From positions 117,782-181,781 of the forward strand of contig JBBECT010000004.1 in assembly GCA_040881665.1 (NCBI GenBank): 64,000 nucleotides of DNA. The letters run 5' to 3'. Under the pieces are notes generated by a model, which saw only the letters and a list, made by a program, of their open reading frames with translations, was not told the origin of the DNA and made no database searches. Position numbers and translations under genes: made by a program. Below, piece after piece: positions 33,384 through 62,439 of this stretch (position 1 is the stretch's first letter; each line of letters starts with the position of its first letter). This DNA comes from Actinomycetota bacterium (GTDB lineage: Bacteria; Actinomycetota; UBA4738; HRBIN12).

Positions 33384-33444
33384 CGGGGTGCCTCCTCTTG
33401 GTCTGGTTCCCACGGCGTTCTTCCGCACTCCGAGACTCCAAAGC

Positions 33445-34278: not shown

Positions 34279-34376
34279 GGCGGGGAGTATGCCGCAGGCA
34301 CCCGCGCCGGTCGAAATCGGATACCGCCCGATCCGGGCGCAACCACGGTTCTCACGCTCGGCGGTAGGATCGGTCC

Positions 34377-34652
34377 GTGCTCCTGTTCATCGTCGTGCTG
34401 TTGCTGCTCGCCGCGATCTTCGGCGTGCTCGGAACCGTCCTCAAGGTCGCCTTCGTGCTGGTCCTGGGCGCGGTCCTCGCCGTCGCCACGATCGCGCTGC
34501 TGGGCTACTACTGGTTCCGCTACCGGCTCCGCGAGTATCAGCGCCGGACGCAGCAGGTGGGCCCGGGGGGAAATCCTCACGTGCCGCCGGTCACGCCCTC
34601 GAGCACGATCGACGTGGGTGAGCCGGTCCGCGACGAGCTCACGGACGACTGA
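34377..34652 (+). CDS. small hydrophobic membrane protein, 91 aa
   Basis: GTG at 34377 with a GGTAGGA ribosome-binding site 7 nt upstream. Two predicted transmembrane helices then a polar tail. Its 3' end overlaps the convergent oxidoreductase stop by 14 nt. Confidence 0.45.
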   Translation: MLLFIVVLLLLAAIFGVLGTVLKVAFVLVLGAVLAVATIALLGYYWFRYRLREYQRRTQQVGPGGNPHVPPVTPSSTIDVGEPVRDELTDD

Positions 34653-43280: not shown

Positions 43281-43530
43281 TCCCGCGCGGACGCGTTCGC
43301 GCAGGTCACGTCCGTTGCTTCGGCCGGGGGTCCCGCGGGCAGGAGAGGTGCGCAGGTCGAACGGTCTCCCCCGGCTCCGCCCGAACCGCTAGGCCGCCTC
43401 ACCTGCACAAACCCCCCGCTCACCCCTGAACGGCCCGTCAAGGCGGGCTCGGAGGGGGCCGATACGAATCACAGCACGCACGAGGCGTCGTGTGCGCTGC
43501 GACGTACCGGAAGAGGGAAAAGGCGACTGC

Positions 43531-45840: not shown

Positions 45841-47139
45841 ATGCCGATCGCCTACGAACAGATCGAGGCGGAGAACCGGATCCTGCACCGTGTGATCGAG
45901 ACGATCTCGTCCAGCCTCGACCTCGATATCGTGCTCGACGAGACGATCGACCTCGTGATGGCCGCCACGCGCGGCGACGCCTGCTTCCTCCATCTCTACG
46001 ACGAGCAGCGGCAGGTGCTCACGCTGCGCGCCGCCTCGGAAGGCTTCCGGGGTGCGGTCGACCAGGTCGTGCTCGGGATCGGCGAAGGCGTCGCGGGCTG
46101 GGTCGCCGAGCACCGCGAGGTCGTGATCATCCCGGAGAACAAGTTCTCCGACCCGCGCTACAAATACATCCCCGAGTTGCGGGGTGAGCAGTTCACCTCC
46201 CTGTTGTCGGTGCCGCTCGTCTCCCGCAGCGGCTCGCTCGTCGGCGCGTTCAACGTCCATGCACGGGAGCGTCGCGACTTCTCCGACCGGGACGTCGAGT
46301 TCCTCCGTTCGACCTCCTCGCTCGTCGCCGCCGCGATCGAGCACGCGAACGTGTTCCGAGCTCTCGAGGAGAAGGAGGGAGCACTCGCAGACCTCGTCCG
46401 GCGAACGATCGAAACGCAGGAAGAGGAGCGGCGGCGGCTCGCCAGCGAGATCCACGACGGCGTGACCCAGCAGCTCGTTTCCGCCTGGTACCGGCTCCAG
46501 GCGCTTCGCCGCCACATGGGCGACCCCGAACGCGCCGAGACCGAGCTCGCACGAGCCCAGGAGATGGTCGACGCGGCGCTCGAGGAGGCGCGGTGGGCGA
46601 TCCAGGACCTGCGTCCGACCACGCTGGACGACCTCGGCCTCGGGCCGGCGCTCAAGGCACTCGTCGCGCGCTCGCTCGAGGACGAGACCGCGTTCGAGCT
46701 CGACGTCGACGACGCGATCACGCTCCCGAACCACCACGAGGTCGCCGTCTATCGGATCTGCCAGGAGGCGCTGAACAACGTGTGGAAGCACGCGGACGCC
46801 TCGCACGTCGCGGTCACCCTGACGGTCGAGAACGAACAGGTGCTGCTGCGCGTGACCGACGACGGAACGGGATTCGACGTTCGCGACTATCGGTCGAGGC
46901 GCCCCGAGACGTCGTTCGGTCTGCTCGGCATGTCCGAACGCGCCGACCTGATCGGCGGACGCATCGACGTCCGCAGCCGCCCGGGGGACGGAACCATCCT
47001 CGAGCTCCGCGTCCCGCAGCCACCGCCTGCCGATCCGCCGCCGGCATCCGGGCGACGGTCCCCCGCCGAGCACCCACAGCGACCCGGCCGGTCGCGCGAG
47101 GACGGGCGGAGCGAAGTGCAGGGGTGGAACGCGACATGA
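45841..47139 (+). CDS. GAF-domain sensor histidine kinase (HisKA_3/NarX-family)
   Basis: GAF domain, then the H-box EIHDGVTQ, then the HATPase_c domain (GFDVRDYRSRRPETSFGLLGMSERADLIGG). Confidence 0.85.
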   Translation: MPIAYEQIEAENRILHRVIETISSSLDLDIVLDETIDLVMAATRGDACFLHLYDEQRQVLTLRAASEGFRGAVDQVVLGIGEGVAGWVAEHREVVIIPENKFSDPRYKYIPELRGEQFTSLLSVPLVSRSGSLVGAFNVHARERRDFSDRDVEFLRSTSSLVAAAIEHANVFRALEEKEGALADLVRRTIETQEEERRRLASEIHDGVTQQLVSAWYRLQALRRHMGDPERAETELARAQEMVDAALEEARWAIQDLRPTTLDDLGLGPALKALVARSLEDETAFELDVDDAITLPNHHEVAVYRICQEALNNVWKHADASHVAVTLTVENEQVLLRVTDDGTGFDVRDYRSRRPETSFGLLGMSERADLIGGRIDVRSRPGDGTILELRVPQPPPADPPPASGRRSPAEHPQRPGRSREDGRSEVQGWNAT

Positions 47140-47792
47140 GCGACGACCCGATCTCGCTCGTGATCGTCGACGACCACCGGGTCGTGCGCGAAGGCCTGCG
47201 CGCGATGCTGGACGGGATCGAGGAGGTGCGCATCGTCGGCGAGGCCGAGGACGGAGCGGGCGCATTCGCCGAGATCGAACGGGAGCAGCCCCAGGTCGTC
47301 CTTCTCGACCTCCGGCTCCAGAAGGAGAGCGGGCTCGACATCTGCCGTGCGATCGGAGAGCGGTTCCCCGACGTGCACGTCGTGTTCCTCACGGTCTACG
47401 AGGACGAGCAGTACGTGTTCGAAGCGCTCCGTGCCGGCGCCCGCGGCTACATGCTGAAGAAAGCGAGTCCGGAGGACCTCGTTCGGATCCTCGGCAGCGT
47501 CCAGGCGGGTGAGGTCGTGATCGATCCCTCCCTCGGCGGGCAGATCGCGCTCCGCGCCGCATCGATGCGCACGGGCGACTCGTGGCCTGGCGTGCACGAA
47601 GGACTCACCCGCCGAGAGGGCGACGTGCTCGAGCAGCTCGTGAAGGGGTTGAACAACCGCGAGATCGCCGGGGCACTGTTCATCAGCGAGGACACCGTGA
47701 AGACGCACGTGCGGGGGGTGCTTCGCAAGCTCGGGGTGAAAGACCGCGCGCAGGCGGTCAGCTACGCGCTCCGCAACGGCCTGGCTACCTGA
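47136..47792 (+). CDS. NarL/LuxR-family response regulator
   Basis: Receiver domain (LVIVDDH..., VVLLDLRL) plus a LuxR HTH. ATG at 47136 overlaps the kinase stop (ATGA). Confidence 0.9.
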   Translation: MSDDPISLVIVDDHRVVREGLRAMLDGIEEVRIVGEAEDGAGAFAEIEREQPQVVLLDLRLQKESGLDICRAIGERFPDVHVVFLTVYEDEQYVFEALRAGARGYMLKKASPEDLVRILGSVQAGEVVIDPSLGGQIALRAASMRTGDSWPGVHEGLTRREGDVLEQLVKGLNNREIAGALFISEDTVKTHVRGVLRKLGVKDRAQAVSYALRNGLAT

Positions 47793-49192: not shown

Positions 49193-50959
49193 ATGCTCCC
49201 GGGACCGACGCACGAGCCGGGCACCCGCCGTGCTCGCACCGAAGAGCTGTCGCGACGGCTCGCGGTGGCGCGGGGCGAGGAGGCCGCGGACCTGGTCCTG
49301 ACCGGAGGCCGCGTCTTCTCCGTCTTCACGAACGAGTTCCTCGAGGTCGACGTCGCGATCTCGGGAGGACACGTCGCGGGCCTCGGGCGGTACGAGGGAA
49401 CCGAAACCGTGGATGTCGAGGGCGGGATCCTCGTGCCCGGTTTCATCGACGGACACCTGCACGTCGAGTCCACCAAGCTCGTGCCGGATCAGTTCGCGCG
49501 CGCCGTCCTGCCCCACGGGACGACGACAGCGGTCATCGATCCGCACGAGATCGCGAACGTCCTCGGCCTGGCCGGGGTCCGGGAACTCCTCCGGCGGATC
49601 GATGACGTACCGATCGACGTCTTCGTGATGGTCTCCAGCTGCGTGCCGGCGAGCCGATTCGAGTCCAGTGGGGCAACCGTCACCCCCGAGGAGATCGCCG
49701 CCTTCCTCCGTGAGGAGCCGCGAGCGCTCGGTGTTGCCGAGATGATGGACTTCCCCGGGGTGGCTCGGGGCGACCCGGTCGCCCTCGCGAAGATCGAGGC
49801 GGCCTACGACGCAGGAGACCGGCACATCGACGGTCACGCGCCGGGGCTGTCGGGCCCCGCCCTGAACGCCTACGTGGCGGCGGGCCCGGCGAGCGACCAC
49901 GAGTGCACGACGCAGGAGGAGGCGCTCGAGAAGCGTCGTCTCGGGATGTGGATCATGCTCCGAGAGGGATCCGCTGCCCGCAACCTCGAGGCGCTCCTGC
50001 CGCTCGTCCGCGATCACGGCCCTCGGAACTGCCTGCTGTGCACCGATGATCGAGAACCCAACGACCTCCGCGACGAGGGACACATGGACGCGGTGCTGCG
50101 ACGAGCCGTCGCCCTCGGCTGCCCCGCGGAGGACGCCCTCGTGATGGCCACGCTGCACGCCGCCCGGTACCACCGCCTGCATCGCTACGGTGCGATCGCT
50201 CCGGGCTCGCTCGCCGACATCGTGTTGCTCGATGACCTCCAGCGGTTCGCGCCCGCGCGTGTCTGGAAGCGCGGCCTGCTGGTCGCGGAGGACGGACGGG
50301 CGCTCGAGATCGGGTCACCTCCCCCGATGCCGGACTGGATGCGAGGTACCGTGCACGTGCCTGAGCTCACGACCGAGGACTTCGCGGTTCCCGCCGCGGA
50401 TCGCGTTCGCGTGATCGGCGTCCGCCCGGGTCAGATCGTGACGGATGCGCTCGAGGACGACGCGCTGGTACGCGGCGGGCGCAGCGTCGCCGACCCGGAT
50501 CGCGATCTCGCCAAGCTCGCGGTCGTCGAACGGCACGCGAAGACGGGGAGGATCGGTGTCGGGTTCGCACGGGGGTTCGGGATCCGGCGCGGCGCGCTCG
50601 CCTCGACGCACGCACACGACGCGCACAACATCGTGGCGCTCGGCGTCGACGACGAGGACATGGCCGTGGCCGTCCGACGGCTCGCGGAGATCGGTGGAGG
50701 ACAGGTCGCCGTCGCGCACGGCGACGTGCTCGCGGAACTCCCGTGCCCGATCGGCGGCTTGCTCACGGAGCTGGTCTTCGAGGAGGTTGCCGACCGGTTC
50801 GACCTGCTCGAGTCCTCGGCGCGCGAGCTGGGCGTCACGCTGCGAGCCCCGTTCATGGCGATGTCGTTCCTCGCGCTGTCGGTGATCGGTGATCTGAAGC
50901 TGACCGATCACGGCCTGCTCGACACGGTTCGGTTCGAACTCGTTCCGGTCGTGCTCTGA
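49193..50959 (+). CDS. adenine deaminase (amidohydrolase superfamily)
   Basis: VPGFIDGHLHVES metal-binding motif and the overall Ade architecture. ATG at 49193 lies only about 7 nt downstream of a TAGGCT hexamer. Confidence 0.85.
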   Translation: MLPGPTHEPGTRRARTEELSRRLAVARGEEAADLVLTGGRVFSVFTNEFLEVDVAISGGHVAGLGRYEGTETVDVEGGILVPGFIDGHLHVESTKLVPDQFARAVLPHGTTTAVIDPHEIANVLGLAGVRELLRRIDDVPIDVFVMVSSCVPASRFESSGATVTPEEIAAFLREEPRALGVAEMMDFPGVARGDPVALAKIEAAYDAGDRHIDGHAPGLSGPALNAYVAAGPASDHECTTQEEALEKRRLGMWIMLREGSAARNLEALLPLVRDHGPRNCLLCTDDREPNDLRDEGHMDAVLRRAVALGCPAEDALVMATLHAARYHRLHRYGAIAPGSLADIVLLDDLQRFAPARVWKRGLLVAEDGRALEIGSPPPMPDWMRGTVHVPELTTEDFAVPAADRVRVIGVRPGQIVTDALEDDALVRGGRSVADPDRDLAKLAVVERHAKTGRIGVGFARGFGIRRGALASTHAHDAHNIVALGVDDEDMAVAVRRLAEIGGGQVAVAHGDVLAELPCPIGGLLTELVFEEVADRFDLLESSARELGVTLRAPFMAMSFLALSVIGDLKLTDHGLLDTVRFELVPVVL

Positions 50960-50972
50960 CGCCGCCCGATCC

Positions 50973-52145
50973 TCAGTCTCGACGCAGACCGTGGCGTTCG
51001 GGCCCCGCATGCTCCACATCGGGATGAGCCTCGAGCCATGTGCGCAGCGACGCCCGCCACAGCGCCCGCTCGTGGAACTCCCCCGCTCGCCGAAGGCCTC
51101 CGACACCACCCCGCTGGAACAACGTGCGCAGCAGAGGAGCGAGCTGATCTCCGTAGAGCTGCATGCAGTCCTGCGGATGGACACCCGGCCAGGAGTAGCA
51201 GGACACGACCCAGCGACGGATCGCGTGCGGGATCTCGTCGGGCACCTCCTCCCACGCGGGATCGTCGGGAGCGAGCTTCCAACCGTCGAGATCTCCTTGG
51301 GGGATGCCCTCGATGCTCCGCACGGTCGGCGGATCGGCCTCGATCAGGTACGGATCGACGTTGCAGTCGCACACGACGGCGTGCTCGGGAAGCCACGCGA
51401 GCTGGTCGTTCGTGATGACGGGAAGGCTCGGATCGGAGCGCTGCGTGGTATCGACGAGGACGTCGGTCGCCGCCAGCCGGTTGCGCAGATAGTCCGCGTC
51501 GGCGGTCATGTTCCGCCCGAGCGTCACGACCTCCACTCCGCGCAGCCCTGCCAGTCGCTCCGCCCTGGTCGGGTCACCGTACTTCGTCGCCGCCTCGACG
51601 GCGTGCTTGCCGATCGCGCCGGCGCCGAGCACCGTGACGCGGACGGGGCCGCGCTCCGGGTCGCGGAGCCGCGGCCAATGGTCCTCCAACACCTCGAACG
51701 CGGCTTCGAGTCCGTTCCAGGCCACGGCGCGGCTGTTCACGACCAGGCGACGGCCCCGATCGTCGGCGATCGAATCGATCGAGATCGCTTCGAGCCCGAG
51801 TCGCTCGAGCCGTGCGACGCGGCGTGGCCGGGTCGGGTAGTGCAGCATCGAGATCAGTGTGGCACCGGGCTTCAACAGGTCGTACCGATCGTCGGGTGAT
51901 CGCAGCACGAGCACGACGTCCTGTGCGGCCGCCTCCTCGTTCGACCCGGGGCGTACGCCCGGTCCGACGGCCATGTAATCGGCATCGGTCAGCCCCATCC
52001 CCGAACCGATCCCCGTCTCGACGACGATCTCGACCCCGAGATCGGAGACCGCCTCGACGAGATCCGGGAGGAAGTCGCGGAGCTCGCCACGCTCCTTGTG
52101 CATGCGGGGCAGACCGAGCGAACGGGCGCGTCCTGCCTCGCTCAT
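50973..52145 (-). CDS. AlaDH/PNT-family NAD(P)-dependent dehydrogenase (saccharopine/opine dehydrogenase- or carboxyethylornithine synthase-like), 390 aa
   Basis: Rossmann VLGAGAIGKHAV around residue 172 and a conserved N-terminal LGLPRMHKERGE block. ATG verified at 52143-52145. The track ORF 5' extension to 53033 is Arg-rich artefact. Confidence 0.7.
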   Translation of the reverse strand: MSEAGRARSLGLPRMHKERGELRDFLPDLVEAVSDLGVEIVVETGIGSGMGLTDADYMAVGPGVRPGSNEEAAAQDVVLVLRSPDDRYDLLKPGATLISMLHYPTRPRRVARLERLGLEAISIDSIADDRGRRLVVNSRAVAWNGLEAAFEVLEDHWPRLRDPERGPVRVTVLGAGAIGKHAVEAATKYGDPTRAERLAGLRGVEVVTLGRNMTADADYLRNRLAATDVLVDTTQRSDPSLPVITNDQLAWLPEHAVVCDCNVDPYLIEADPPTVRSIEGIPQGDLDGWKLAPDDPAWEEVPDEIPHAIRRWVVSCYSWPGVHPQDCMQLYGDQLAPLLRTLFQRGGVGGLRRAGEFHERALWRASLRTWLEAHPDVEHAGPERHGLRRD

Positions 52146-53305
52146 CCGTGACGCTCCAGCCATCCATGCAGTTCCGCCCGCGCGACGGCCCGCTCCCAGA
52201 AGCTCACACCGTCCTCGCTCCACTGGTCCACCGGCCGATGCAGGATGAAGCGGAGGACCGGCTCGAGCTGCTCGCCGTACACGTCCATGCACCGGCGCGG
52301 CGACAGGCCCGGCCAGGCGGAGCACGAGAGAGTCCGGCGCCGGTTCGTCCGGTCGATCCGCGGGTCGAGGTCGTCGAACGCGGGGTCGTCGGGTTCGAAT
52401 ACCCACCGATCGAGATCTCCGTGCGGGATCCCCTCGATCCCCTTGATCAGCGGTGGATCGTGGGCCAGGTCGTATGGATCCACGGAGAGATCCAGCACGA
52501 GCGCATCCGCCGGCAACCGTGCGAGCCACCGGTTCGGTATCACGGCGCGCGTCGGATCGGGCCGCTGGGTCGCATCGACGAGCAGGTCGGTCTTCGCGAG
52601 CCGGTCGAGCATGTACTGCTCGTGCGAGGTGAGGTCGTAGTCGACGACGGTCACCTCGACGCCGGGAACCCCGCCGGCCGCCAGCCGGTCGCGCACCCCG
52701 GTATCGCCGTACCGCGTCGCGGCGTGGATCGCGTGGCTCGCCACGTGGCCCGACCCGAGCACGGTCACGCGAACGGAACCCCGCGCCGGATCGTCGAACC
52801 CTTCCTGCCGGCGCTCGAGCTGCTCGAAGGCGGCGCGCACGCCGTTCCATCCCACGGATTCGAGGTTCTCGATCAACCGCCTCCCCAGATCGTCGGCGAT
52901 CGAGTCGAGCGAGACCGCTCCGAGCCCCTGGGCGGCGATCATCGCTGTGCGGTTGGGGCGCGTCGGGTAGTGGAGCATCGACACGAGCAGGGCACCCGGA
53001 CGCATCCTCCCGATCGCCTCGTCGTCGGGGCACCGGATAACGACGACCACGTCCTGTCGCAACGCGTCCTCGTACGAGGAGAACCGGACCTCCGGGGCGA
53101 ACGCCCGATAATCCTCCTCGGACGCGTCGATCCCCGATCCGTACCCCTCTTCGAGCACGATGTCCGAGCAGGAGGGCTCCGCCGCGAGCGATGCGACGAG
53201 ATCGGGGAGGAAGTCGCGGCGCTCGCCGGCCTCCTTGTGCATCCGAGGGAACCCCAGCGTCAACCGCCGATCCGGAGGTGCAGGAGGTATCGCTCTTCCG
53301 ATCAC
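52142..53305 (-). CDS. AlaDH/PNT-family NAD(P)-dependent dehydrogenase, tandem paralog of the downstream gene
   Basis: Collinear similarity to the gene at 50973-52145 throughout (PRMHKEAGERRDFLPDLV..., VLGSGHVASHAI). Its stop overlaps the downstream start by 4 nt. Track start at 53305; the codon was not verified. Confidence 0.7.
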   Translation of the reverse strand: MIGRAIPPAPPDRRLTLGFPRMHKEAGERRDFLPDLVASLAAEPSCSDIVLEEGYGSGIDASEEDYRAFAPEVRFSSYEDALRQDVVVVIRCPDDEAIGRMRPGALLVSMLHYPTRPNRTAMIAAQGLGAVSLDSIADDLGRRLIENLESVGWNGVRAAFEQLERRQEGFDDPARGSVRVTVLGSGHVASHAIHAATRYGDTGVRDRLAAGGVPGVEVTVVDYDLTSHEQYMLDRLAKTDLLVDATQRPDPTRAVIPNRWLARLPADALVLDLSVDPYDLAHDPPLIKGIEGIPHGDLDRWVFEPDDPAFDDLDPRIDRTNRRRTLSCSAWPGLSPRRCMDVYGEQLEPVLRFILHRPVDQWSEDGVSFWERAVARAELHGWLERHG

Positions 53306-53371
53306 GCCCGGGACGCTAGCGCGAGCGGCGCCATGCGACCAGCGTCACCGTCGCCCGATCGCGGGACCGGT

Positions 53372-54355
53372 TCAGAGGTCGAGCGCGCCGCGCAGGGAGC
53401 CGCTGAGGTGGGCCACGATCAGCAACTGGGTAAGCGCCAGCGCCTCGCTCCTGCGCCGGTCGCCGCTCGGATGCTCGTAGCGCCCGATGTTCGTCCGGTG
53501 CAGCCCCGGTCTGCCCAGTCGCGTCCAGATCGCCTGTTCGATCGCGGCGCCGGCCACGGCGGGGCAGTCCCCGTCGATCTCGACGACCTGCACCGGCGTG
53601 CCGAGCGAGCGGTCGCGGGCCAGTCGCACCGGTTCTCGCCGACCCCCACCCGGGATCCCCCGCACGACGTTCGCGAGCTCGGAGCTCAGCAGCGAGGGAC
53701 GCAACGCGATCCGCGCACCGAGGTTCGCGTACGCGTCGGGGTTCGTGCGCCGGAGGAACGAGACGACGACGTCGGCGTGCTCTGCCTGTGGACGGACATA
53801 CAGGGCCGAGTCTCGTTCCCGCCGGCGGAGGTCGGCGACGACCTGGGCGATCTCGTACCCGCGCTCCTCGCAGTCGCGGGCGATCTTCCATCGGTGTCGC
53901 AGCTCCTCCTCGGGCTCGAGGTAGACGGACACATCGAAGCAGTCGCGGAGGCCCCGCGTTCCGAGCGCGAGCAGTCCCTCGACGATCACGACCTCCTTCG
54001 GCTCAACCATGACGGGGTCGGTGTGTCTGCCGGTCGCGTGGTCGTACACGGGCTTGTCCACCGCATCGCCTCGGGCGAGCGCGCGGAGGTGGCGCTCGAT
54101 CGCCGGCAGATCGTTCGCCTCGGGATGCAGCGGCGTGATGCCGAGGCGCTCGCGTTCCGACCGGTCATGCCGGTGGTAGTCGTCGACACAGATCCGCGTC
54201 ACCCGGTGTTCGCCCAGGAGCGCCCGGATCCCCTCGGCGAGCGTCGTCTTGCCAGATGCGCTGTCGCCGGCGACCGCGAGCATCACCGGTCGCGGCCCGG
54301 CGTGGGCGGCCCCGGCCACCCGGAGATCGATCACGCGCTCTGCGGTTTGCACCAT
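53372..54355 (-). CDS. phosphoribulokinase/uridine kinase-family protein
   Basis: Walker A GDSASGKTT and PRK-like body. Start region ATG 54353-54355 or GTG 54350-54352, with AGGAG just upstream. Confidence 0.7.
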   Translation of the reverse strand: MVQTAERVIDLRVAGAAHAGPRPVMLAVAGDSASGKTTLAEGIRALLGEHRVTRICVDDYHRHDRSERERLGITPLHPEANDLPAIERHLRALARGDAVDKPVYDHATGRHTDPVMVEPKEVVIVEGLLALGTRGLRDCFDVSVYLEPEEELRHRWKIARDCEERGYEIAQVVADLRRRERDSALYVRPQAEHADVVVSFLRRTNPDAYANLGARIALRPSLLSSELANVVRGIPGGGRREPVRLARDRSLGTPVQVVEIDGDCPAVAGAAIEQAIWTRLGRPGLHRTNIGRYEHPSGDRRRSEALALTQLLIVAHLSGSLRGALDL

Positions 54356-54483
54356 GCTCCTGATGGTAAGAAGCGGCAGGTCAGACCCACAGCCCCCTGG
54401 GGGTGGAGCCGGGGGTGAACCCGCCCTCACCCGCCGGGGTGAGCCGCTCCGGTTCCGCGGCCCTCGCGCGCACGACGCGGCGG

Positions 54484-54489
54484 TAGGCT
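54484..54489 (+). promoter_or_regulatory. candidate -10 element TAGGCT (CGGTAGGCTGG) 44 nt upstream of the transketolase ATG
   Basis: Recurring motif. A leader with a GGAGGGG ribosome-binding site follows. Confidence 0.3.
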
Positions 54490-54533
54490 GGCGGCCCCGC
54501 GGCAACGCGGCCGGAAGGCGGAGGGGTGAGGGC

Positions 54534-56366
54534 ATGGAGAAGGTCCAGGAGTGGAACGAGCTGGCGGCCCAGCTCGCGATCGACAGCATCCGGTGCTCGA
54601 CGGCCGCCGGATCGGGCCACCCGACCTCGTCGATGTCCGCCGCGCACCTGCTCGCCGTCCTGTATTCCGACCACCTGCGCTACGACGTCGCCGAGCCGCG
54701 ACACCCGGGAGGCGACCGATTCGTGCTCTCCAAGGGGCACGCCTCGCCACTGATGTTCTCCACGCTGAAGGCGATCGGCGCGATCACCGACGAACAGCTG
54801 CTGACGTTCCGGACCTTCGGCAGCCCGGTCGAGGGGCATCCGGTGCCGCTTCCCGACATGCCGTGGATCGACGTGGCGACGGGCTCCCTCGGACAGGGCC
54901 TGCCGATCGGTCTGGGTATGGCGCTCGGTCTGCGGATCCTCGAACGTCCCGGCCGAGTGTGGGTCTTGATGGGGGACTCGGAGGTCACCGAGGGTTCAGT
55001 CTGGGAAGCGATGGAGAACGCGAGCTACCACGGCCTCGACAACCTGATCGGGATCCTCGACATGAATCGGCTCGGACAGCGCGGTCCGACGATGCTCCAG
55101 TGGGACGGCGAGGCCTACGCCCGGCGCGCCGAGGCCTTCGGCTGGCACGCGCGGGTGATCGACGGGCACGACGTCGCCGCGATCACCGACGCCTACCGGG
55201 AGGCCGAGGAGACGGTGGGTCCGAGTCTGATCGTGGCGAAGACCGAGAAGGGACACGGTGTCTCGTTCCTCGCGAACAAGGAAGGCTGGCACGGGAAGGT
55301 GCTGAGCGCCGAGCAGGCCACGCAGGCGATCGAGGAGCTGGGTGGCGAGCGGGCGATCGCGATCACCCCCGCGAAGCCCGAGCAGATCGACTCCCCCGAG
55401 CCGGCGCGCCGCACCCTCGAACTGCCCGTGTTCGACGATGCGATCGCGACCCGGAGGGCGTTCGGCGACACCCTCGCCGCGCTCGCGTCGGCACGCGGAG
55501 ACGTGGTCGCGCTCGACGCGGAGGTCGGCAACTCCACGTACACCGAGGAGGTCGAACAGGCCGAACCCGCCCGGTTCGCACAGATGTTCATCGCGGAGCA
55601 GGCGATGCTCGGGGCGTCGGTGGGACTCCAAGCGGTCGGACTCACTCCGTTCGCCGCGACCTTCGGGGCGTTCCTCTCGCGTGCGTACGATTTCGCGCGC
55701 ATGGCGGCGATCAGCCGCGCGCACATCCGGTTGTGCGGCTCGCACGCCGGGGTGTCGATCGGCGAGGACGGTCCGTCTCAGATGGCTCTGGAGGACCTGG
55801 CCTCGTTCCGCGCGATCAACGGGTCGACGGTGATCTACCCGGCGGACGGAACCTCCACCGCCGCACTCGTCGCGACGATGGCCGACTGGGACGGCGTGGC
55901 GTTCATGCGGACGACCCGGGAGGCGACGCCGAAGCTGTACGCCGACGGTGAGGCGTTCCCGATCGGCGGCAGCAAGGTGCACGACGCGTCCGCCGACGAC
56001 CACGCGACGATCGTCGGCGCCGGGATCACCCTCGTCGAAGGCCTGGCGGCCGCCGAGTTGCTCCGGGCCGAAGGAACGCCCGTGCGCGTTATCGATGTCT
56101 ACTCGGTCAAGCCGATCGACGGCGCCACCCTTCGGCAGGCGATGGAGGAGACCGGCCTGCTCGTCGTCGTCGAGGACCACCGGACCGAGGGCGGGATCGG
56201 TGAGGCGGTGCTGGAGGCACTGGCCGAAGACGGGCGCGCGCTGTCGGGGAAGGTCGTGAAGCTCGCCGTGACGAAGATGCCGATGTCCGGATCGCCCACC
56301 GAGCTCCGCGACTGGGCGGGGATAAGCGCGTCGAAGATCGCAGACGCGGTGCGGGCGAAGCTCTAG
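54534..56366 (+). CDS. tkt: transketolase (single-chain; TPP-binding N-terminal, pyrimidine-binding middle and C-terminal domains), 610 aa
   Basis: TPP-binding region GDRFVLSKGHASP...GSLGQGL...LMGDSEVTEGSVWEA and a C-terminal transketolase domain. GGAGGGG ribosome-binding site 7 nt before ATG 54534. Confidence 0.8.
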   Translation: MEKVQEWNELAAQLAIDSIRCSTAAGSGHPTSSMSAAHLLAVLYSDHLRYDVAEPRHPGGDRFVLSKGHASPLMFSTLKAIGAITDEQLLTFRTFGSPVEGHPVPLPDMPWIDVATGSLGQGLPIGLGMALGLRILERPGRVWVLMGDSEVTEGSVWEAMENASYHGLDNLIGILDMNRLGQRGPTMLQWDGEAYARRAEAFGWHARVIDGHDVAAITDAYREAEETVGPSLIVAKTEKGHGVSFLANKEGWHGKVLSAEQATQAIEELGGERAIAITPAKPEQIDSPEPARRTLELPVFDDAIATRRAFGDTLAALASARGDVVALDAEVGNSTYTEEVEQAEPARFAQMFIAEQAMLGASVGLQAVGLTPFAATFGAFLSRAYDFARMAAISRAHIRLCGSHAGVSIGEDGPSQMALEDLASFRAINGSTVIYPADGTSTAALVATMADWDGVAFMRTTREATPKLYADGEAFPIGGSKVHDASADDHATIVGAGITLVEGLAAAELLRAEGTPVRVIDVYSVKPIDGATLRQAMEETGLLVVVEDHRTEGGIGEAVLEALAEDGRALSGKVVKLAVTKMPMSGSPTELRDWAGISASKIADAVRAKL

Positions 56367-58873
56367 GCGATCGAGATCGTCTCGCCCGGCGCCGCGCCGT
56401 CGACGACCAGTTCCCCAGCCCGGATCTTCTCGGTGAGTTCGTCCGCGGGGATCGGACGCGAGAAGTAGTAACCCTGGCCGAGCTGGCAGCCCTGCCCCGC
56501 GAGGTACTGCCACTCATTCTCGGTCTCGATGCCTTCGGCGAGGGTTTTCATCCCCAGGCCCCGGCCGAGCTCGATCACGGCGGTCACGATGCTCGCCGCC
56601 TCTTGATCGCGGTGCACCGCGCTGACGAACGCGCGGTCGATCTTCAGCACGTCGATCGGCAGGAACCGGAGCCGCGACAACGAGGAGTATCCGGTTCCGA
56701 AGTCGTCCAGTGCCAGCGTGAGTCCGCGTGAATGCAACTCGCTGAGCACATAGAGCCAGCGGTCGAAGTCCTTGACCGCCGAGGACTCCGTGATCTCCAC
56801 GACGATCCGGCTCGGGTCCACCCCGCCCGCGTCGAGGCGGTCGAGGATGCGCGAGGAGATGTCGGGCTGCCACAACTGCCGAGGCGAGAGATTGAAGCCG
56901 ATCTCGAGCGGGATCTCAGCCTGCCGCCACACCGCGTCCTGCCGGGCGATCTCCTCGACGACCCAATCGCCGATCGTCTCGATCAGGCCGAGCTCTTCGG
57001 ACAGCGTGATGAAGTCGTTGGGGGGAACGAGGTTCCCGTCAGGCTCGCGCCAGCGCAGCAGCGCTTCGACCCCGATCATGCCGCCGCTGCCCAAGTCGAC
57101 CACCGGCTGGTAATGCAGTTCCCACTGCTCGTGCTCGACGGCCTTGCGCAGCCGCGTGACGAAGGAGAGCTTCGCGATCGAGTCGACACCCACGGACGAG
57201 GCGAGCACGTAGCCTCCGACGCCGCCCTTCTTCGCCTCGGCCATGGCCGCCTCCGCCCCGAGGAGGAGGTCCTTGCGCGTCGCCGCGTGCTGGGGGAACA
57301 AAGAGATCCCGAGGCTCGCCGAGAGGTAGAGCTCGGTGCCGGCGACGGTGAACGGCTCCCGGAGGGAGTCGTGGATCCGTCCCGCCACACCCTCGGCGGT
57401 GACGATGGCCGCATCGAGCTCGCCCATCTCCTCGGTCTCGAGGTCGGCGAGCAGCAGGAGGAACTGGTCCCCACTCATGCGTGCGACGAGATCGGTCTCC
57501 CGGGTCGCCTCCCGCAGACGTTCCGCCAGCTGCCCCAACACCTCGTCCCCCGCCTCGTGGCCGAGGGAATCGTTCACGAGCTTGAAGTCGTCGATGTCGA
57601 GGACGAGCACCGCGACCGAACCGTCGTGGCGCCCCGCCCGCGCCATCGCCAGATCGAGGAACTCGTCGAACATCGCACGGTTCGGCAGGCCGGTTCGCTC
57701 GTCGTGGTAGGCGAGGAAGGCCGCCTCCTCCTCCGCGTGCTTCTGTGCGGTGATGTCCTGCATGAAGCCCTGGGAGATCACCGGCGTGCCCCACTCGTCA
57801 TGGACGATCTTCGCGACGTCGCGAACCCAGACGACGCTGCCGTCCTTGTGGATCATCCGGTACTCGACGTCGAACACCTCACCCGTCGTGTTGTGACGGC
57901 TGTTCTCCGCGACGGCGCGATCGCGGTCGTCCGGGTGCAACACCTCGATCCACACGTCGTCGCTCGCGGTGAACTCTTCGACGGTGTAGCCGAGGAGCTC
58001 TTCGATCTGCGGGCTGATGTAGGCGGTCGTTGCCTCATCGTTGAGCTCGTCGGCGTAGGTGACCGCGGGGATGTTCTCCACGAGCGCCCGGTAGCGCGCC
58101 TCGGCGCTGCGCCGAGCGTCGTCGGCGACCTGGCGGCCGATCGCGGTGCCGAGGTGGGACGCCATCACGCGGAGCATGTCGAGTTCGACCTCGTCCCAGA
58201 CGCGTTCCCGGACGCAGTCGTCGAATCCCATGAAACCCCACCAGCGCTCGCCGGCGAAGATCGGAACGAAGCAGTAGGAGTGGATCCCCTCGCTGACCAT
58301 GTCCTCGCGCTCGTTGCCCGACACGCTCGACCGCCCTCGTTGGATGATCTCGCCGGCAGGCATCCGCTCGAGCCAGTCCGCGTAGCCGTCCTCGTAGGGC
58401 CAGTCGTGGTTGTCGGGGAGCGGCAGCGTGGCCGGGACCTGGTCCGCGCACCACTCGAAGCGCTGATCCATCAGGACGCGACCGTCGCCGTCGGTCCCGT
58501 TCTCGAACACGTAGGCGCGGCTGGCCTCCGCCGCGGTCCCGAGCTCGGCGAGCACGACTTCGATCGACCGCTCCCACGAGCCGCTGCGCAGGAAATGCTC
58601 CGTCGCGAACGAGACCGATTGCAGGATCGTCTCGCGGCGCTGCAGGACGCGCTGCTGCTCTCCGACGCGCCGTGCCATCACCAAGAGGTAGCCGAGGAAC
58701 AGCCCGGCCATCCCGAGCAGGGACGCCCGCAGGATCAGGGCCGCTGTGCTCGCCGCGGGCACGACGAGGAAGGCCGCCGCGACCGCGGCAGCGAACAGCG
58801 CGATGGCGACGGCCTCGGTCAAGCGCCGTGCGCCCGCGCGGGAACCCGCAGGATCTCGTTGTGCTCTCCCCAT
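56363..58873 (-). CDS. membrane-anchored GAF-PAS-GGDEF(degenerate)-EAL signalling protein, about 836 aa
   Basis: Two N-terminal transmembrane helices, then a GAF-like region, a PAS domain, a degenerate GGDEF-family domain (RMSGDQFLLL) and an intact EAL (EALLRWR). ATG at 58871-58873; the track ORF 5' extension to 59752 overlaps a + strand gene and is Arg/Gly-rich. Confidence 0.75.
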   Translation of the reverse strand: MGRAQRDPAGSRAGARRLTEAVAIALFAAAVAAAFLVVPAASTAALILRASLLGMAGLFLGYLLVMARRVGEQQRVLQRRETILQSVSFATEHFLRSGSWERSIEVVLAELGTAAEASRAYVFENGTDGDGRVLMDQRFEWCADQVPATLPLPDNHDWPYEDGYADWLERMPAGEIIQRGRSSVSGNEREDMVSEGIHSYCFVPIFAGERWWGFMGFDDCVRERVWDEVELDMLRVMASHLGTAIGRQVADDARRSAEARYRALVENIPAVTYADELNDEATTAYISPQIEELLGYTVEEFTASDDVWIEVLHPDDRDRAVAENSRHNTTGEVFDVEYRMIHKDGSVVWVRDVAKIVHDEWGTPVISQGFMQDITAQKHAEEEAAFLAYHDERTGLPNRAMFDEFLDLAMARAGRHDGSVAVLVLDIDDFKLVNDSLGHEAGDEVLGQLAERLREATRETDLVARMSGDQFLLLLADLETEEMGELDAAIVTAEGVAGRIHDSLREPFTVAGTELYLSASLGISLFPQHAATRKDLLLGAEAAMAEAKKGGVGGYVLASSVGVDSIAKLSFVTRLRKAVEHEQWELHYQPVVDLGSGGMIGVEALLRWREPDGNLVPPNDFITLSEELGLIETIGDWVVEEIARQDAVWRQAEIPLEIGFNLSPRQLWQPDISSRILDRLDAGGVDPSRIVVEITESSAVKDFDRWLYVLSELHSRGLTLALDDFGTGYSSLSRLRFLPIDVLKIDRAFVSAVHRDQEAASIVTAVIELGRGLGMKTLAEGIETENEWQYLAGQGCQLGQGYYFSRPIPADELTEKIRAGELVVDGAAPGETISIA

Positions 58874-58955
58874 ACCCTGGAGGGGGTATCGGGTGGTCGC
58901 GAGACCGACTGTAGGGGAGCGGCCGTGCCCACGTGGGTGGCGGATCGGCCGCTGG

Positions 58956-58961
58956 TAGGCT
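58956..58961 (+). promoter_or_regulatory. candidate -10 element TAGGCT (CTGGTAGGCTGAGG) 8 nt upstream of the ATG of the RGG-tail hypothetical gene, implying a leaderless transcript
   Basis: Recurring motif. Confidence 0.3.
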
Positions 58962-58969
58962 GAGGCGCC

Positions 58970-59428
58970 ATGGCCGACTATCGCCAAGTGATCCACGAGC
59001 GTCTGTACGTCAGGACACCGGGATCCGACAAGCTCCGCAAGACTGCCGAGGGGCGCCTCAAGCGCCTGGCCACCGACGGCTGGCGCGAGCTCGAGCGCTG
59101 GCAACGAGCCGACCACATCGAGGTCAAGCTCGAGCGGACCGGCGTGGTGCCGATGACGGCCCGACGGCCCCGCCCTGCCCCGGAGCAGAAGTTCGAGCGC
59201 AGGCGGGGTGGATTCGGTCGTGGCGGGTTCGGCGGCGGCGGTCGTGGCGGTGGAGGCGGTCGTGGCGGCGGGAACCGCGGGGGCGGACGAGGCGCCCCGC
59301 GCCAGACCGCACCTTCCCAGCAGGCGGCGCAGGCACCCGCGGCCACGCCCGAGACTCCGGCTCCCGCGGCCCCTGCTCCCGCTTCTCCCGCCGCGCCGGC
59401 TCCCGCGCCGGAACAGACCCCTTCCTGA
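58970..59428 (+). CDS. hypothetical protein with an Arg/Gly-rich (RGG-like) and Ala/Pro-rich disordered C-terminus, 152 aa
   Basis: ATG at 58970 lies 8 nt after a TAGGCT hexamer. The N-terminal 80 aa are globular-looking and the C-terminal GRGG repeats are low complexity. Confidence 0.5.
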   Translation: MADYRQVIHERLYVRTPGSDKLRKTAEGRLKRLATDGWRELERWQRADHIEVKLERTGVVPMTARRPRPAPEQKFERRRGGFGRGGFGGGGRGGGGGRGGGNRGGGRGAPRQTAPSQQAAQAPAATPETPAPAAPAPASPAAPAPAPEQTPS

Positions 59429-59654
59429 CCCGCGGCCACGACGGCCGCTCGATCCAGTCTCTTTAGCTCTCGTCGACCCGTTGACCCGGGGTTCGAGGAG
59501 CCGAACATCCTTCGGTCTGACGGGTTTCCGCACCAGATTCTTCCGGGTATCATGGGCTTTCCCGAACGTATCGACGATGTGCGGCCTGAACGACGAGTGA
59601 ACGCGGGGACCCAGCCGACCGAACGGCGATCGAGACCGGCGAGGAGGTCGAGTG

Positions 59655-61070
59655 ATGACCGAGCAGAGCCAGCACGACGCGACGACGGCGCGCCCCGGCC
59701 ATCGTGAGGCACGCGCCCATGCCGCGGAGCAACCCTTCGAGTACCCGCTCAAGCGTGCATACGTGGAGCCGGACTGGACCCGTCTCCCGGGCTACGCGGG
59801 CGTCACGAAGCAGCAATGGGAGGACGCCCAGTGGCAGCGCGCCCACACCGTGAAGAACCTCAAGCAGTTCAAGGACGCGCTCGGTGATCTGATCTCCGAC
59901 GACCTCATGGCCGATATCGAGCGTGACCAGGCCGAGCGCGCGACGATGTCGATGCTGATCCCGCCTCAGATGCTGAACACGATGGACACCGAGGACCTCT
60001 GGCGCGACCCGATCCGCCTGTACATGGCTCCGGCGCTCTCCGACCGCGACCAGGAATGGCCGAGCCACCCGATGTCCTCACGCGACTCGCTCCACGAAGC
60101 CGAGATGTGGGCGGTCGAGGGGCTCACGCACCGCTACCCCACGAAGGTGCTCGCGGAGCTGATCCCCACCTGTCCGCAGTACTGCGGACACTGCACCCGG
60201 ATGGATCTGGTCGGCAACGACACCCTCCAGGTGCTCAAGTACAAGTTCGAGATCAAGCAGAACGACCGTTGGGAGATGATGCTCGACTACCTGCGTAAGA
60301 CTCCCGTGGTCCGCGACGTCGTGGTGTCCGGCGGCGACATGGCGAACGTCCCGATCAAGCGGCTCGAGGATTTCGTGATGCAGCTGCTCGAGATCGAGAA
60401 CATCCGGGACATCCGCCTGGCCACGAAGGGCCTGATGGGGATCCCGCAGCACTTCCTCCAGGACGACGTGAAGGCGTCGGCCGAGCGGATGGCGACGCGG
60501 GCACGTGAGCGGGGCGTCGACATCGCCGTGCACACGCACGTGAACAATGCCCAGCAGGTGACACCGCTCGTCGGCGACGCGGCGAAGGTGTTCCTCAACG
60601 CCGGGTTCCGCGACGTGCGGAACCAGGGTGTGCTGCTCCGCGGTGTGAACACGACTCCCCAGCAGCTGCTCGAGCTGTGCTTCATGCTGCTGGATCACGC
60701 GAAGATCATGCCCTACTACTTCTACACCTGCGACATGATCCCCAACTCCGAGCACTGGCGAACCGCCGTCTGGGAGACGCAGGAGCTGCAGTTCGCGTTG
60801 CTCGGCTACCTGCCCGGGTTCGCGACGCCGCGCATGATCGTCGACGTCCCGTTCGTCGGGAAGCGCTGGACGCACATGCTCACCAACTACGACCGGACGA
60901 AGGGCATCTCGTACTGGAAGAAGAACTACCGCACGGGGATCGAGTACGACGACCCCGAGGCGCTCGAGCGCGAGTACCCCTACTACGACCCGGTCAACAC
61001 GCTGCCCGAGGAGGGAAAGCGATGGTGGCGTGAGCAGTCCGCGAGCGCTACCGAGCTGCAGCCCGTCTGA
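59655..61070 (+). CDS. lysine 2,3-aminomutase (KamA-family radical SAM enzyme)
   Basis: Radical SAM CxxxCxxC present as CPQYCGHCTR. Full KamA length (471 aa) rather than the shorter EpmB. GAGGAGG ribosome-binding site 7 nt upstream of ATG 59655. Confidence 0.85.
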   Translation: MTEQSQHDATTARPGHREARAHAAEQPFEYPLKRAYVEPDWTRLPGYAGVTKQQWEDAQWQRAHTVKNLKQFKDALGDLISDDLMADIERDQAERATMSMLIPPQMLNTMDTEDLWRDPIRLYMAPALSDRDQEWPSHPMSSRDSLHEAEMWAVEGLTHRYPTKVLAELIPTCPQYCGHCTRMDLVGNDTLQVLKYKFEIKQNDRWEMMLDYLRKTPVVRDVVVSGGDMANVPIKRLEDFVMQLLEIENIRDIRLATKGLMGIPQHFLQDDVKASAERMATRARERGVDIAVHTHVNNAQQVTPLVGDAAKVFLNAGFRDVRNQGVLLRGVNTTPQQLLELCFMLLDHAKIMPYYFYTCDMIPNSEHWRTAVWETQELQFALLGYLPGFATPRMIVDVPFVGKRWTHMLTNYDRTKGISYWKKNYRTGIEYDDPEALEREYPYYDPVNTLPEEGKRWWREQSASATELQPV

Positions 61071-61082
61071 GATCGAGCCGCG

Positions 61083-62315: not shown

Positions 62316-62439
62316 CGGTCTCTCCTTCGGTCGCCCGCCGACGGCCCGGCTCCTCACGACCGCCGACCCTCGATCGGCAGGATGATGTCACTGACCGAGC
62401 GCTTGGTCAACATCCGGGCCGCGTGCTAGCGTCGCCCGC

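Follow-up and report, generated by a model that had tools for sequence, protein, structure and literature searches.

The gene pair and its surroundings

Two genes lie in tandem on the minus strand of the window, by which we mean the whole stretch of 64,000 nucleotides that was analyzed. Gene boundaries were called from a GC3 analysis together with reading of the ORFs. Paralog A (52142-53305, 387 aa, GTG start) is the upstream member of the pair, and paralog B (50973-52145, 390 aa, ATG start) is the downstream one. As read directly from the sequence, the stop codon of A lies over the start codon of B in an ATGA overlap (52142-52145), with a GGAG inside A, 9 nt upstream of the B start, and this overlap appears to be one of translational coupling. 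The two proteins share 51% identity over 374 aa (E = 2e-120), which is far beyond chance. The tandem of paralogs of about 390 aa with a 4-nt overlap, as described in the initial annotation, was thus recovered, and so were the two shared motifs that it had pointed out. The N-terminal block occurs in A as LGFPRMHKEAGERRDFLPDLV (residues 17-37; 53195-53257), where it contains the ExR equivalent of Arg15 of alanine dehydrogenase (AlaDH) and Arg18 of Lys1, and in B as LGLPRMHKERGELRDFLPDLV (residues 10-30; 52056-52118). The Rossmann glycine motifs, GSGHVA in A (residues 184-189; 52739-52756) and GAGAIG in B (residues 174-179; 51609-51626), share the same alignment columns. These motifs, like all those of A and B given below, are on the minus strand.

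The flanking genes were also as first described. A kinase of the PRK/uridine-kinase family (327 aa; 53372-54355, minus strand; PF00485, 8.7e-39; NF005655, 316.7 bits vs 236) precedes A on the same strand with a gap of 66 nt, and a transketolase of 610 aa (54534-56366, plus strand; NF004559, 842.6 bits) is transcribed divergently from it. On the other side, an adenine deaminase gene (49193-50959, plus strand; TIGR01178, 568 bits) is convergent with B, with 13 nt between the stop codons, and this gene and a DEAD-box helicase gene occupy the stretch from B to the 48-kb mark. A radical-SAM aminomutase gene of the KamA family (59652-61070, plus strand; CPQYCGHC) was found 3.3 kb beyond the transketolase. 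It had been called a lysine 2,3-aminomutase; the family and the distance of about 3 kb hold, but the lysine specificity is unproven, since the protein scores under every NCBIfam cut-off (TIGR00238, 164 vs 199; lys_2_3_AblA, 185 vs 525). The reported absence of RuBisCO was borne out among the coding-like ORFs scanned, which lie at ~2.5-4.7 kb, 5.8 to ~26.6 kb and ~27.5-64 kb of the window.

Many soil bacteria carry the pair as well, as a unit of its own. A is directly upstream of B in 43/43 pair-bearing loci, from Actinomycetota and Myxococcota, and in 33 of 37 pair loci the start of B lies inside the end of A, with 1-25 nt in common. Orthologues of A from different phyla have 57.6% identity to each other, more than the 46% between A and B, and a natural in-frame A-B fusion (P0005) was seen once, on a 2-kb metagenomic contig. 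The conserved overlap, the coherence of A across phyla and the fusion agree with the earlier suggestion that the paralogs look built as a working pair. Chloroflexota carry B alone, without A, which argues that the fold does not need a heteromeric partner in order to function. A census of the neighbours at 80 loci revealed no neighbour family in more than 19 of them. Similarly, a Pfam census of 120 immediate neighbours revealed no family in more than 10, and nothing related to sugar phosphates. The pair is self-contained: no other gene consistently accompanies A and B. This context does not point consistently to any one substrate. Around distant members there is an amino-acid theme, in favour of the oxidoreductase proposed below: an amino-acid ABC transporter, hydantoinase A/B, an aminotransferase and an arginase, elsewhere an Opp transporter, and elsewhere again a peptidase M20 together with an ATP-grasp protein and Aminotran_4.

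Family, predicted active site and cofactor signatures

Both A and B have the complete AlaDH fold with its two domains (AF2 models with pLDDT of 92.5 and 94.3), and hhalign against M. tuberculosis Ald gave 97.8% probability. The Pfam domain AlaDh_PNT_N scored above its cut-off of 30.4 bits in both proteins (A, 43.9; B, 67.7), whereas AlaDh_PNT_C had no match in A and was below cut-off in B. At the level of NCBIfam equivalogs, the scores were roughly 8- to 22-fold under the cut-offs, both for alaDH (TIGR00518, 25.6 and 33.9 bits vs 391.85) and for the pntA models (20.5-49 bits vs 383-444). A and B thus fall outside the bona fide alanine dehydrogenases and PntA subunits, in line with the doubt expressed in the initial annotation. 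Also, only 99 clusters among 1.84e9 representative proteins reach the family at E<=1e-30, and the database names of its members are all generic, mostly 'alanine dehydrogenase'. On the basis of these scores, cluster numbers and names, A and B appear as a clade of their own, uncharacterised, within the superfamily that unites alanine dehydrogenase, transhydrogenase dI and saccharopine dehydrogenase.

In both proteins, the His that serves as general acid/base is retained (H102), as are the arginine of ExR and D264, the Asp of the (V/I)D motif. The catalytic Lys of AlaDH is replaced in both by an invariant Arg (R82), located in VLRSPDD of B (51888-51908; equivalent in A at 53021-53041) by HMMER alignment to 2eez and by hhalign to M. 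tuberculosis Ald and Lys1; some distant family members carry Lys at this position. An extra invariant Arg (R133) is found in DDRGRRL of B (51744-51764; equivalent in A at 52874-52894), where AlaDH has Leu/Pro; it aligns with GRR of Lys1 and GVR of LKR, that is, with their G-x-R arginine. The His, the Asp and about a dozen other polar residues are invariant across phyla in the family.

The active-site residues of A and B are identical, apart from the end of strand beta2. In A, this strand (216-221 in the AF2 model) is followed directly by D222-Y-D224, an acidic, NAD-type end (strand and motif together, 52634-52663). In B, the strand (204-209) is followed directly by G210-R211-N212, which has no acid but an Arg and is of NADP type (strand and motif together, 51510-51539). 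Asp stands at both position 210 and position 212 in 100% of 43 A-type sequences (42 from the loci and A of the window), whereas 83 B-type sequences (82 from the loci and B of the window) have Gly at 210 in 96% of cases and Asn at 212 in 92%. Asp at the beta2 end of A, against Gly-Arg-Asn in B, suggests that A binds NAD(H) and that B prefers NADP(H), an assignment made from three residues and general Rossmann-fold rules rather than from a bound-ligand model.

Possible functions of the pair

We consider the chances somewhat better than even that A and B together make up one NAD(P)-dependent oxidoreductase of two translationally coupled subunits, self-contained and belonging to this distinct clade. 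The subunits would probably assemble as a hetero-oligomer, with NAD(H) bound by A and NADP(H) preferred by B. The cleft holds many invariant arginines, which points to an amino-acid-like substrate with more than one anionic group, and the chemistry would take place at a C-N bond, as oxidative deamination / reductive amination or as opine-type imine reduction.

The same pair could, with low probability, act as a soluble transhydrogenase, either direct or coupled through a substrate, or as a redox-neutral two-step enzyme in which A oxidises a metabolite and B re-reduces it, so that hydride would be moved between two nicotinamide pools, or a stereocentre inverted. The strict complementarity of the beta2-end signatures on an otherwise identical active site would fit such a cycle, as would the obligate pairing with overlap and the place of transhydrogenase domain I in the same superfamily. 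However, the solitary B of Chloroflexota and the lack of a PntB/dIII-like partner argue against it, the conserved cleft of His, Arg and Asp suggests a non-nucleotide substrate, and the cofactor assignment is itself a prediction.

Just as improbable, in our opinion, is a role of A and B as non-catalytic NAD(P)(H)-sensing regulators. The precedent is ADLP of Thermus thermophilus, an AlaDH-like pseudoenzyme which is inactive through loss of the catalytic Lys, binds NAD+ and inhibits a CoA transferase (10.1101/2025.10.31.685773). This Lys is likewise not kept in A and B, so that their catalysis is not assured, and no metabolic partner genes are conserved. Nevertheless, the replacement is a conserved Arg (or Lys, in some distant members) and not Ala, the invariant polar residues exceed the needs of nucleotide binding, and no conserved target gene lies nearby.

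The initial annotation had joined A and B with the kinase, the transketolase and the KamA-family gene nearby in one sugar-phosphate/amine condensation (opine-type) pathway, which we now regard as slightly less probable still. It is true that the kinase, A and B follow each other on one strand in the window, with a 66-nt gap and then the 4-nt overlap, that at locus L078 the transketolase, kinase, A and B are co-directional with the KamA-family gene divergent just upstream (L006 has the same block), and that the arginine motif G-x-R-[LV]-V is common to the A/B family and Lys1/LKR. However, 78 of the 80 related loci lack the kinase and transketolase beside the pair, which adjoin it in only two, and the neighbour census held nothing related to sugar phosphates. 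In two kinase-centred loci from other Actinomycetota (L093, L094), the genes run transketolase<>kinase-DEAD helicase and A/B are missing from between them. The transketolase belongs with the kinase and not with A/B, and the kinase is a local neighbour outside the conserved module. The pair thus stands behind the kinase through insertion into a pre-existing transketolase<>kinase-helicase block, within one lineage, and not as part of a four-gene pathway. The KamA-family gene fares no better as a link, as its proximity is kept only in the one syntenic lineage of L006 and L078, and in the window the transketolase and a GGDEF-EAL gene separate it from the pair.

It is very unlikely that A and B are two diverged L-alanine dehydrogenases (isozymes), even though the source names read 'alanine dehydrogenase', the nearest match among solved folds and profiles is AlaDH, and the equivalents of His95, Asp269 and the ExR arginine are retained. 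The alaDH scores quoted above, an identity to AlaDH of about 18-23%, the absent or sub-threshold AlaDh_PNT_C domain, the change of catalytic Lys to invariant Arg and the change of the hydrophobic GALPLL of AlaDH to GRRLV all oppose this reading. Least credible of all is a partnership with purine deamination, such as handling ammonia or product from an adenine/adenosine deaminase: the window and L006 have an adenine deaminase next to B, L078 has there instead a co-directional adenosine-deaminase-like gene that is not its orthologue, and in a third clade (L007, L008, L010, L011, L013, L024) A_deaminase genes occur at a distance of 1.3-3.5 kb, but about 70 of 80 loci have no nearby deaminase, the third-clade gene is in a convergent, separate operon, and no mechanism links the enzymes.

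Comparison with known systems

The kinase beside the pair resembles the PRK07429-type 'phosphoribulokinase', with NF005655 above cut-off and full-length matches to its best solved relatives 9qkn ('uridine kinase'; 8e-76) and 9qko (2.5e-71; 9QKO/9QKP, 'cyanobacteria specific phosphoribulokinase'), whereas canonical Calvin-cycle PRKs (6GVE, 6KEV, 6HZK, 6H7G) match only its N-terminal ~180 residues.

Among relatives of A and B, Thermus thermophilus ADLP (TT_C1082), compared by description only, has the AlaDH fold and has lost the catalytic Lys; it differs in having Ala and a CoA transferase, where A/B have a conserved Arg, an otherwise invariant cleft and no conserved partner gene. Domain I of proton-translocating transhydrogenase (PntA/PntAA; 1X13, 1F8G, 3P2Y-type) has the same fold and N-terminal domain family, and 3P2Y is the best single-sequence PDB match (2e-10). 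However, A/B are far under the pntA cut-offs, have no pntB or membrane partner beside them, and keep the His that PntA lacks.

Lys1 (saccharopine dehydrogenase, L-lysine-forming, EC 1.5.1.7; 2Q99/2QRJ) and the LKR domain of AASS (8DDA/8E8T) share with A/B the ExR motif, the D-x-G-x-R-[LV]-V arginine and a His at the acid/base position. In Lys1 this arginine is Arg131, in the published structures a ligand of 2-oxoglutarate. A/B nevertheless gave no significant match to Lys1/LKR by sequence or by profile (none at E<=10; hhalign probability of 1.1%), have Arg in place of Lys77, and lie outside any gene context of lysine biosynthesis or degradation. The best profile match (7.9e-21) is with L-alanine dehydrogenase (EC 1.4.1.1; Phormidium lapideum 1PJB, M. 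tuberculosis Rv2780 2VHW/2VHX, Thermus 2EEZ), with which A/B share the arginine of ExR, the (L/M)LH His and the (V/I)D Asp. Besides their low identity and the two arginine replacements, A/B differ from AlaDH by an insert of roughly 15 residues between the glycine motif helix and beta2, by a C-terminal third with SC(Y/S)(S/A)WPG and conserved Cys residues, and by their organization as an overlapping gene pair with differing cofactor signatures.

The overlapping gene pair and its cofactor signatures

Because the window is ~70% G+C, genes were called from third-position GC and frame bias, followed by ORF reading. Paralog A, the upstream member of a pair of AlaDH/PNT-superfamily proteins (52142-53305, minus strand, 387 aa, GTG start), precedes paralog B (50973-52145, minus strand, 390 aa, ATG start). 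The A stop and the B start overlap in a common ATGA tetranucleotide, and a GGAG lies inside A, 9 nt upstream of the B start. The two proteins align over 374 residues with 51% identity (E 2e-120), both contain the block LG(L/F)PRMHKE.GE.RDFLPDLV, and their glycine-rich Rossmann motifs occupy equal alignment columns. Next to A are found a PRK/uridine-kinase-family protein (53372-54355, minus strand, 327 aa) and, divergent from it, a transketolase (54534-56366, plus strand, 610 aa), and no RuBisCO family was matched among the coding-like ORFs scanned, which covered ~2.5-4.7 kb, 5.8 to ~26.6 kb and ~27.5 to 64 kb of the window. The initial annotation had described all these features, namely the paralog pair with its 4-nt overlap, the shared N-terminal block and Rossmann position, the PRK-like kinase and short transketolase, and the absence of RuBisCO, and each was confirmed, the last for the ORFs scanned. 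Scanned against Rfam for a ligand-naming riboswitch, the whole window gave no match, and a promoter and terminator scan of 50700-54700, uninformative at 70% GC, found none.

Pattern scanning across GTDB, with one genome for each species, returned 529 matching stretches, in which A and B of one genome are possibly counted separately, and the best 80 loci were compared. In these 80, an A-type gene lies immediately upstream of a B-type gene in every Actinomycetota (35) and Myxococcota (8) locus, among them that of the cultured Archangium violaceum Cb vi76 (L034). The 40 single-copy genes are all B-type (37 single-copy loci, mostly Chloroflexota, 3 of these with a second B-like copy). Orthologues of A from different phyla are 57.6% identical, versus about 46% for A against B within one genome, which argues from sequence identity that the duplication is old and that both genes are passed on together, by inheritance or transfer. 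Of 37 pairs, 33 show an overlap of 1-25 nt between the end of A and the start of B, which is 4 nt in 15.

At 17 loci (including L014, L015, L016, L023, L034 and L078), the TGA stop of A falls 13-25 nt inside B, in codons of the conserved L-T-(F/L)-G N-terminus of B (CTGACGTTCGG), so that the overlap is constrained by both proteins. Also, a metagenomic fusion protein, P0005 (L086, 1-1902), joins in frame an A-type C-terminal part, a linker of ~25 residues and a complete B-type protein; its single ORF lies on a JGI contig of 2 kb, whose end truncates it. Such fusions are rare, as no full-length A-B fusion (~770 aa) was found among the best-scoring 50%-identity representatives. The clade is compact, since 1.84 billion representative proteins yielded only 99 clusters at E<=1e-30. 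Its hosts are Actinomycetota, Myxococcota and Chloroflexota of soils and sediments. More distant members occur in Firmicutes, CPR bacteria and Bacteroidota; Sedimentibacter, Siminovitchia terrae, Clostridia, Roizmanbacteria and Saprospiraceae contain members at 29-37% identity.

Nine positions distinguish A from B types while being at least 85% conserved within either type. Two of these directly follow Rossmann strand beta2 (residues 204-209 in the B model, 216-221 in the A model), where A types present Asp-(Tyr/Phe)-Asp (D222-Y-D224 in A), both Asp being 100% conserved, and B types Gly-Arg-Asn (G210-R211-N212 in B; Gly 96%, Asn 92%). In Rossmann folds, an acidic residue after beta2 binds the adenine-ribose hydroxyls of NAD, while an Arg without an acid accommodates the 2'-phosphate of NADP. 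From these signatures and this general rule, we infer that A would use NAD(H) and B NADP(H). Neither protein looks like a dead subunit, because all putative catalytic residues are the same in A and B.

On balance, we consider that A and B make up an NAD(P)-dependent oxidoreductase with an AlaDH/SDH fold, which is self-contained and probably hetero-oligomeric. The two proteins would probably assemble into a hetero-oligomer in which the A site would be tied to NAD and the B site to NADP, with oxidoreduction at the C-N bond of an anionic amino-acid-like compound. Should such a heteromer with an NAD site and an NADP site exist, its architecture would be new to a much-studied enzyme superfamily, and it would be a candidate for a role in redox balance or in amino-acid or opine metabolism.

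The complementarity of the two signatures also makes attractive the idea of a metabolite-coupled soluble transhydrogenase, or of a redox-neutral two-step enzyme which oxidises its substrate with one cofactor and re-reduces it with the other. However, B occurs alone in Chloroflexota, and we regard this as unlikely, equally so in the form of an obligate A-B heteromer with near-identical active sites wired to NAD(H) in A and NADP(H) in B. If true, it would be a new way to build such an activity from an alanine-dehydrogenase fold. Similarly doubtful is a role of A and B as non-catalytic nucleotide sensors. The precedent is ADLP, an AlaDH-like NAD+-sensing pseudoenzyme of Thermus thermophilus devoid of the catalytic Lys (10.1101/2025.10.31.685773), but the cleft of A and B seems too conserved for it. 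This preprint was the only relevant item found in the literature on the Pfam name, AlaDH-like proteins, CEOS and the second cyanobacterial PRK.

The kinase, the transketolase and the KamA-family gene

The initial annotation took the neighbouring kinase and transketolase as a hint of a sugar-phosphate/amine condensation pathway, and pointed to a lysine 2,3-aminomutase 3 kb away. The kinase and transketolase flank the pair in 2 of the 80 best loci, L006, a close relative whose B is 82% identical, and L078, whose B is 61% identical. A kinase-centred search in other Actinomycetota (kinase 51-53% identical) gave the divergent transketolase and kinase followed directly by a DEAD-box helicase, without A/B, whereas the window has, in order, the transketolase, the divergent kinase, A, B, the adenine deaminase and the helicase (the 45.8-49.1 kb stretch holds a GAF histidine kinase and the DEAD helicase). 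This comparison of gene orders argues that A/B and the deaminase were inserted into a pre-existing block in the lineage of the window. The pathway link therefore did not hold up: as a four-gene pathway, or a five-gene one with the KamA-family gene, it was rejected on this comparative evidence of a lineage-specific insertion and has, in our judgement, quite a low probability. For the same reason, the adjacency of a PRK-family kinase and a transketolase is not to be read as a Calvin-like or sugar-amine pathway.

The aminomutase gene itself (59652-61070, plus strand) encodes a KamA-family radical-SAM protein with a CPQYCGHC motif. KamA-family models were its best matches, but it had no Pfam match at E<=1e-3 and fell under all NCBIfam cut-offs, and lysine is a putative substrate. 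In L078, the whole block of ~17 kb is syntenic, with a solute-binding protein, a CN-hydrolase and KamA, then transketolase, kinase, A, B, a small ORF, an adenosine-deaminase-like gene, helicase, response regulator and GAF kinase. As KamA belongs to this block, its proximity to the pair is, on gene order, part of the inherited synteny of one lineage and not a general property of the pair. A block of KamA-family aminomutase and CN-hydrolase adjoins the transketolase/kinase pair in the window (59652-63303), in L078 (73-3749) and in L094 (1809-4426), with a PotD-like solute-binding protein in the first two, and may reflect beta-amino-acid or polyamine metabolism.

The kinase passes NF005655 (PRK07429, 'phosphoribulokinase') with 316.7 bits versus 236, residues 21-318 aligning to positions 6-311 of the 326 of the model. 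Among solved structures, 9QKN ('uridine kinase') and 9QKO/9QKP ('cyanobacteria specific phosphoribulokinase') match it best over the full length, with E-values of 8e-76 and 2.5e-71; a search for a paper on these entries found none. Canonical Calvin-cycle PRKs align to it over the N-terminal ~180 residues only, and this, with the lack of RuBisCO in the scanned ORFs, speaks against a functional Calvin-cycle PRK. The full-length PRK07429-type match and the partial canonical alignment together point, by sequence, to membership in a non-canonical subgroup of PRK-family kinases; the gene is paired with that of a short transketolase. The arrangement of transketolase, divergent PRK07429-type kinase and DEAD-box helicase is conserved among several MAGs of Actinomycetota, where no RuBisCO was seen (53372-56366 in the window, 5051-9203 in L093 and 5042-9209 in L094) and looks like a unit of its own.

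Other genes of the region deserve mention. Two large PAS-GGDEF-EAL proteins bracket it (43492-45789, plus strand; 56363-59752, minus strand), the second having a long low-complexity Arg/Gly-rich N-terminal extension which may not be translated, and similar genes flank the L093 kinase block. Also, a large quaternary-amine/osmolyte catabolism island (2576-19907 and 30159-36108) contains a RACo corrinoid activator, a B12-binding corrinoid protein, a DAO+GCV_T dimethylglycine-oxidase-like protein, two aldehyde dehydrogenases, an OpuAC ABC transporter, a GMC (choline-type) oxidoreductase, a Rieske oxygenase and BetI-type TetR regulators.

Family assignment and recurrent neighbours

Pfam AlaDh_PNT_N was matched above its gathering score of 30.4 bits (43.9 for A, 67.7 for B), whereas AlaDh_PNT_C was below it (20.8 bits for B versus 23, no match for A). 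Despite this miss, the two-domain AlaDH fold is present in the AlphaFold models of both proteins (pLDDT 94.3 for A, 92.5 for B). The equivalog model of L-alanine dehydrogenase, TIGR00518, failed by far (25.6 bits for A and 33.9 for B versus a cut-off of 391.85), and so did the PntA models NF006942 and TIGR00561 (29.9-49 and 20.5-37.4 bits versus 383 and 444). No pntAB/pntB membrane and dIII partner genes lie beside A/B, whose neighbours are the PRK-family kinase and the adenine deaminase, and no PNT family was found among 120 immediate neighbours of A/B relatives. PntA was thus rejected on scores and missing partners. That A and B are plain alanine dehydrogenases is very improbable: they keep the fold of that family, but the model scores and the replacement of the catalytic Lys by Arg and of GALPLL by GRRLV stand against it, and this candidate was rejected too. 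The view of the initial annotation that they are not obviously alanine dehydrogenases was well founded.

A sequence search of solved structures matched AlaDH and transhydrogenase domain I alone (single-sequence E ~1e-10 to 1e-6; best family-profile match E 7.9e-21), and Foldseek on the models returned AlaDH and PntA at 17-21% identity. The clade thus combines a familiar fold with failed curated models of AlaDH and PntA, and is without characterised function or specific name. Throughout the clade, distant members included, the names given in databases are 'alanine dehydrogenase' or 'hypothetical'; by three lines of evidence, 'alanine dehydrogenase' is the wrong name for the A/B clade. The clade is a solid lead for enzyme discovery and for the correction of a widespread mis-annotation.

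The neighbour census combined de novo clustering of ~1000 proteins from the 80 loci with Pfam on the 120 immediate neighbours. It revealed no conserved partner of the pair, as no family occurred in more than 19 of 80 loci by clustering or in more than 10 of 120 proteins by Pfam, and the commonest matches (MerR, MFS, MarR, Lactamase_B, Usp) represent clade-local synteny. Near distant single-copy members were found an Opp transporter (a Clostridia MAG), a peptidase M20, an ATP-grasp protein and Aminotran_4 (Roizmanbacteria), and, around the member of Siminovitchia, a polar amino-acid ABC transporter, hydantoinase A/B, an aminotransferase and arginase. Such amino-acid and peptide gene contexts fit an amino-acid-type substrate.

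The Siminovitchia terrae locus (L088, 5583-12980) offers the most pathway-like context of the wider family, its 33%-identical member lying between the polar amino-acid ABC transporter and hydantoinase A/B, with the arginase, an AsnC regulator and the class-III aminotransferase nearby. In the window, a GAF-HisKA_3 sensor kinase and a NarL-type response regulator (45841-47738, plus strand) are found at 3 kb from B. Of the best 80 loci, 19 have a similar regulator and 11 a similar kinase less than 10 kb from the pair. Some loci also contain Usp, PFOR, hydrogenase and WS/DGAT genes, a hint of a regulon responding to hypoxia or redox state.

A purine deaminase of differing family adjoins the pair in three lineages (window 49193-50959, plus strand; L078 9958-10980; L003 10402-11505), with an adenine deaminase in the window and L006 and an A_deaminase-like protein in L078 and in the clade of L007, L008, L010, L011, L013 and L024; this may be non-orthologous replacement at one position. 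A link of the pair with purine deamination, which deaminases of two families in three lineages could suggest, is scarcely credible given ~70 other loci without a deaminase beside the pair.

Active-site residues compared with known enzymes

In alignments by HMMER to Thermus AlaDH and by hhalign, E21-x-R23 (B numbering throughout) stands opposite the ExR arginine of AlaDH, the invariant R23 being the equivalent of Arg15. H102, also invariant, lies opposite the His of the AlaDH (L/M)LH motif (His95/96), and the invariant D264 opposite the Asp of (V/I)D (Asp269/270). The catalytic/substrate Lys74/75 of the AlaDH KVKEP motif is replaced by Arg82, invariant in 115 sequences; more distant members have Arg or Lys there, and the most distant Thr. 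The hydrophobic GALPLL of AlaDH gives way to D-D-x-G-R-R-L-V, in which R133 is invariant, and the 115 sequences have about a dozen other invariant positions with Arg, Asp, Trp or Cys.

The resemblance to saccharopine dehydrogenases proposed in the initial annotation may hold for one motif and fails overall. No family-profile match to saccharopine dehydrogenase (Lys1) or AASS was found among solved structures, even at E<=10, and hhalign gave 97.8% probability (E 8.7e-13) with M. tuberculosis Ald versus 1.1% (E 0.05) with Lys1, the Lys1 query being 100% identical to 2Q99. On these scores, and with Lys77 of Lys1 opposite Arg82 in a weak alignment, a Lys1 orthologue was rejected. By sequence, the family thus lies nearest to AlaDH overall, yet its substrate-domain arginine motif is common with the saccharopine branch, and this combination suggests that the substrate carries an extra anionic group.

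In Lys1, oxo-acid binding and acid/base catalysis are the work of Arg18, Arg131 and the Lys77/His96 pair, as seen in published structures (entries include 2QRJ-L and 3UGK/3UH1/3UHA). R23 and R133 stand opposite its Arg18 and Arg131 in a low-confidence hhalign alignment, and of its acid/base pair, His96 is kept as H102 and Lys77 faces Arg82, in a weak alignment. Where A and B have D-D-x-G-R-R-L-V, Lys1 has N-D-Q-G-R-R-V-A and human LKR D-H-R-G-V-R-V-V, so that the G-x-R-[LV]-V motif is common to LKR and the A/B family. As for ADLP-type pseudoenzymes, the catalytic Lys is lost in A and B, but with a conserved Arg in its place, and the neighbour census gave no conserved partner gene.
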